Source: Candidatus Komeilibacteria bacterium S5_K13 (GTDB lineage: Bacteria > Patescibacteriota > Patescibacteriia > UBA1558 > S5-K13). From it: 64,000 nucleotides of DNA. The stretch itself is not shown here. Below, a report on this DNA, generated by a model with database tools, continues. The DNA lies in contig JAEHGL010000002.1 of the NCBI GenBank assembly GCA_019248485.1, positions 1,324-65,323 on the forward strand, written 5' to 3'.

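Follow-up and report, generated by a model that had tools for sequence, protein, structure and literature searches.

The island occupies most of a 637-nt spacer between uvrD (from 12391, plus strand), which encodes the full set of UvrD domains, and a gene for a 533-aa membrane protein without Pfam match (11753..10152, minus strand), in a window whose proteins have named homologues in Falkowbacteria, Kuenenbacteria, Parcubacteria and similar groups. Its GC content is 0.455-0.465 across 12000-12299; the genes on either side have roughly 0.25-0.33. A minus-strand promoter matching TTGACA-N18-TATAAT at 12 of 12 positions (12332..12303) and a terminator whose 11-bp stem (11841..11817, minus strand) precedes a T-run imply a minus-strand transcript of roughly 485 nt, extending from ~12297 to ~11812. 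The minimum free energy of this strand is -151 kcal/mol (z = -7.8 relative to dinucleotide shuffles), and perfect 8-mer inverted repeats within 80 nt number 10, compared with 0.67 +/- 1.0 in shuffles (0 of 1000 shuffles reach 10). Every pairing listed in the original prediction, including both interleaved pseudoknotted sets, was found in its place, and composition, promoter, terminator, pairings, fold energy and inverted repeats together confirm a structured, GC-rich island bounded by its own transcription signals.

Two further observations concern the edges of the spacer. In a different NCBI assembly of this species, uvrD is annotated as encoding 726 aa (P0245), which exceeds the 671-aa protein starting at 12391 by ~55 residues. 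Because the extension (window 12196-12390) would cross the RNA island, the longer version is probably a mis-annotation arising from an open frame in GC-rich RNA, in line with the earlier rejection of such an N-terminal extension. At the opposite edge, a plus-strand promoter-like sequence (TTTATA-N17-TATAGT, 11756-11784) is directed antisense into the RNA's terminator; its -10 box overlaps ACTATACTATTAA, a conserved block 5' of the membrane gene. The site may give rise to a short antisense RNA, or it may be no more than a minus-strand -10 box read in reverse.

Homologues of the two neighbouring proteins led to related loci. The RNA occupies the same spacer, with uvrD on one side and the membrane gene on the other, in two further lineages, L003 (= L004 = L010, contig CAZXFD010000003.1) and L005, as well as in three strain-level copies (L002, L142 and L143). 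It is also present in the DNA sequencing runs SRR10961541, SRR10083293, SRR8925722 and SRR30464888. The L010 contig bears the public title 'uncultured Gammaproteobacteria bacterium', a label that is probably wrong, since its genes and RNA fall with the Patescibacteria clade of the window. Between the window, L003 and L005, UvrD is 90-93% identical, the membrane protein 66-78% and synonymous third positions only 65-71%; by this measure, neutral sites are well diverged among the three lineages. The three RNAs are 65-74% identical overall, which is about the synonymous-site divergence, and their conservation is mosaic: the 81-nt core (12179-12099) has 8 variable positions, and the peripheral hairpins are free to differ in sequence while adopting the same fold in each lineage.

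Across hand-curated helix strands (83 pairs, 249 cells), picked with all of the only three independent sequences in view, 98.4% of cells form standard pairs, compared with 37-46% when the 3' partners are slid by 1-3 nt; 12 pairs have changed on both sides (0-2 when slid), 4 are broken in one sequence (51-59 when slid) and 7 show a one-sided change, all via G-U, a class for which no slid comparison was made. The compensatory pairs are located in H4 (five), H6 (three), H7, H10, H11 and the loop-tail pairing of pseudoknot B, near the 3' end. Fifteen G-U cells would be A-C mismatches if read on the other strand, and the functional strand is therefore the minus strand. The strain-level copy L142 differs from the window at one position in the entire 637 nt, a substitution by which a U-A pair in H6 becomes U-G. 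These sequence comparisons indicate that selection acts on the structure of the minus-strand RNA. The three helices of the core pseudoknot A (S1, S2 and S3) are supported by perfect complementarity and invariance rather than covariation, and H1, the stem that closes the RNA, is weak in L005.

The RNA was not found upstream of uvrD in the next relatives, L134 (UvrD 81% identical) and L137 (73%). The same position holds a 105-aa gene in L134 (5515-5832) and, in L137 (5880-5960, minus strand), an 18-codon ORF (MMKPGSIGLLIGMLVISS) that has its own TTGACA promoter, SD (GAGGAGG) and terminator; small accessory genes seem to have a hot spot here. The decisive locus is L141, where UvrD shares 94% identity with the UvrD of the window and the membrane protein 80% with its L005 counterpart. 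Here the two genes stand back to back with 37 nt between start codons, and the 8-kb contig has no copy of the RNA elsewhere. The membrane-protein identities group the lineages as ((window, L003), (L005, L141)), for which the simplest history is one gain before the small clade split, followed by clean loss in L141. Among 185,579 GTDB species representatives, the core 18-mer occurs in the L003 species and one chance match only; two degenerate patterns against JGI metagenomes and a scan of IMG/VR gave no matches, and blastn against phages and plasmids gave no meaningful match.

The island had been described as free of ORFs, which is wrong: two short minus-strand ORFs with SD-type sites are present. 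ORF1 (12269..12135) starts with an AUG 4 nt past GGAGG (GGGAGGAAAC-AUG), a ribosome-binding site with the form and spacing of bona fide window genes, in which GGAGG spacing is 4-5 nt (for example, GGGAGGAAAA-ATG at 51970); its start and UAG stop are shared in all three lineages (44, 42 and 42 codons). ORF2 (11994..11956) runs to 12-13 codons and, in each of the three, follows a GGAG at a distance of 6-7 nt. Both ribosome-binding sites lie within hairpins made with the ORF's own first codons (H2 and H9, respectively), and translation of both ORFs would be gated by the RNA fold. The main evidence that the frames matter comes from length changes between invariant anchors: inside the ORFs all are multiples of three (-3, -6, -3 and +3), and outside them only 2 of ~15 are (-1, +1, -4, +5, +2, +4, -8, -20 and so on), a bias of roughly P = 0.01 by a hand calculation on a pattern noticed post hoc, which suggests a role for the frames.

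We tentatively favour a dispensable, clade-specific, bifunctional RNA, selected for its structure and carrying two mini-ORFs whose translation the fold gates. That the RNA is purely non-coding is nearly as likely, and several properties of ORF1 speak against a real peptide function. In 26 alignable codons, third positions vary no oftener than first and second ones; replacements are radical, and the middle of the peptide is unrelated among lineages; entire codon runs lack any synonymous change, and it is therefore the nucleotides that are conserved, not the amino acids; and the databases searched hold no related peptide except the L003 copy. The ORF1 stop codon lies within helix S2 of pseudoknot A and the last 14 codons form the 5' strands of S1, S2 and S3, so that a molecule cannot have ORF1 translated and the core pseudoknot formed at the same time, an exclusion that may, we infer, carry functional meaning.

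The alternative raised by the original prediction, a long leader of the membrane gene, is weak and not supported: some read-through is possible, but the terminator is strong (~-17 kcal/mol, then U6), the best alternative pairings of its 5' arm reach -8 to -9 kcal/mol and are differently placed in the three lineages, and the membrane gene is present without the element in L141 and every other lineage examined. Orthologues of this gene in other Patescibacteria have upstream regions of 62-340 nt with 26-28% GC. The 58 nt before its ATG in the window contain no convincing minus-strand promoter.

The membrane genes of the window and L142, strains with 99% identity in UvrD, differ at 80 nucleotides, 77 of them in the last ~280 nt (10152-10433), where nearly all of the 36 amino-acid changes also fall; the first 1300 nt have 3 differences. 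The C-terminus is either recombinant or hypervariable. A radical-SAM/SPASM gene directly follows the membrane gene in L142 (1-726), and in the window a Por_Secre_tail protein gene (8751-10094) lies between the two; gene content varies between strains with 99% identical UvrD. In L011, another of the loci compared, a tRNA-like sequence (GGGGGCGTAGCTTCCCGCAATACTACGGGACAGGCAGTCTGGTTAGAGCG..., 4880-4960) with an apparent insertion in the D-arm region stands just upstream of an intact tRNA (4991-5065), recalling the interrupted tRNA-Val fragment reported earlier from the window. At the 3' end of the 1629-2205 spacer of L011 (~2140-2200), eight tandem copies of the heptamer GCGTTAT adjoin two minus-strand tRNA-like sequences, only one of which is recognised by Rfam.

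As for family membership, the description of the element as an unclassified large structured RNA was right. At gathering thresholds, the only matches to Rfam 15 across the window were two tRNAs; relaxing the search to E<=10 and permissive filters brought up unrelated noise for the island and for both diverged homologues, with no family common to them; and ARAGORN found no tmRNA, standard or permuted. The motif GGGGAGGAAAC, which resembles RNase P CR-I, forms a local pairing with UUCUUCCU (H2) in all lineages, and the segment of the window that might pair with it at long range is not conserved. The element fails all tests that define RNase P RNA, tmRNA, SRP RNA, known riboswitches and large ornate RNAs. 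Nearest to it in kind are dual-function sRNAs and, likewise, the tightly folded mRNAs of type I toxin loci.
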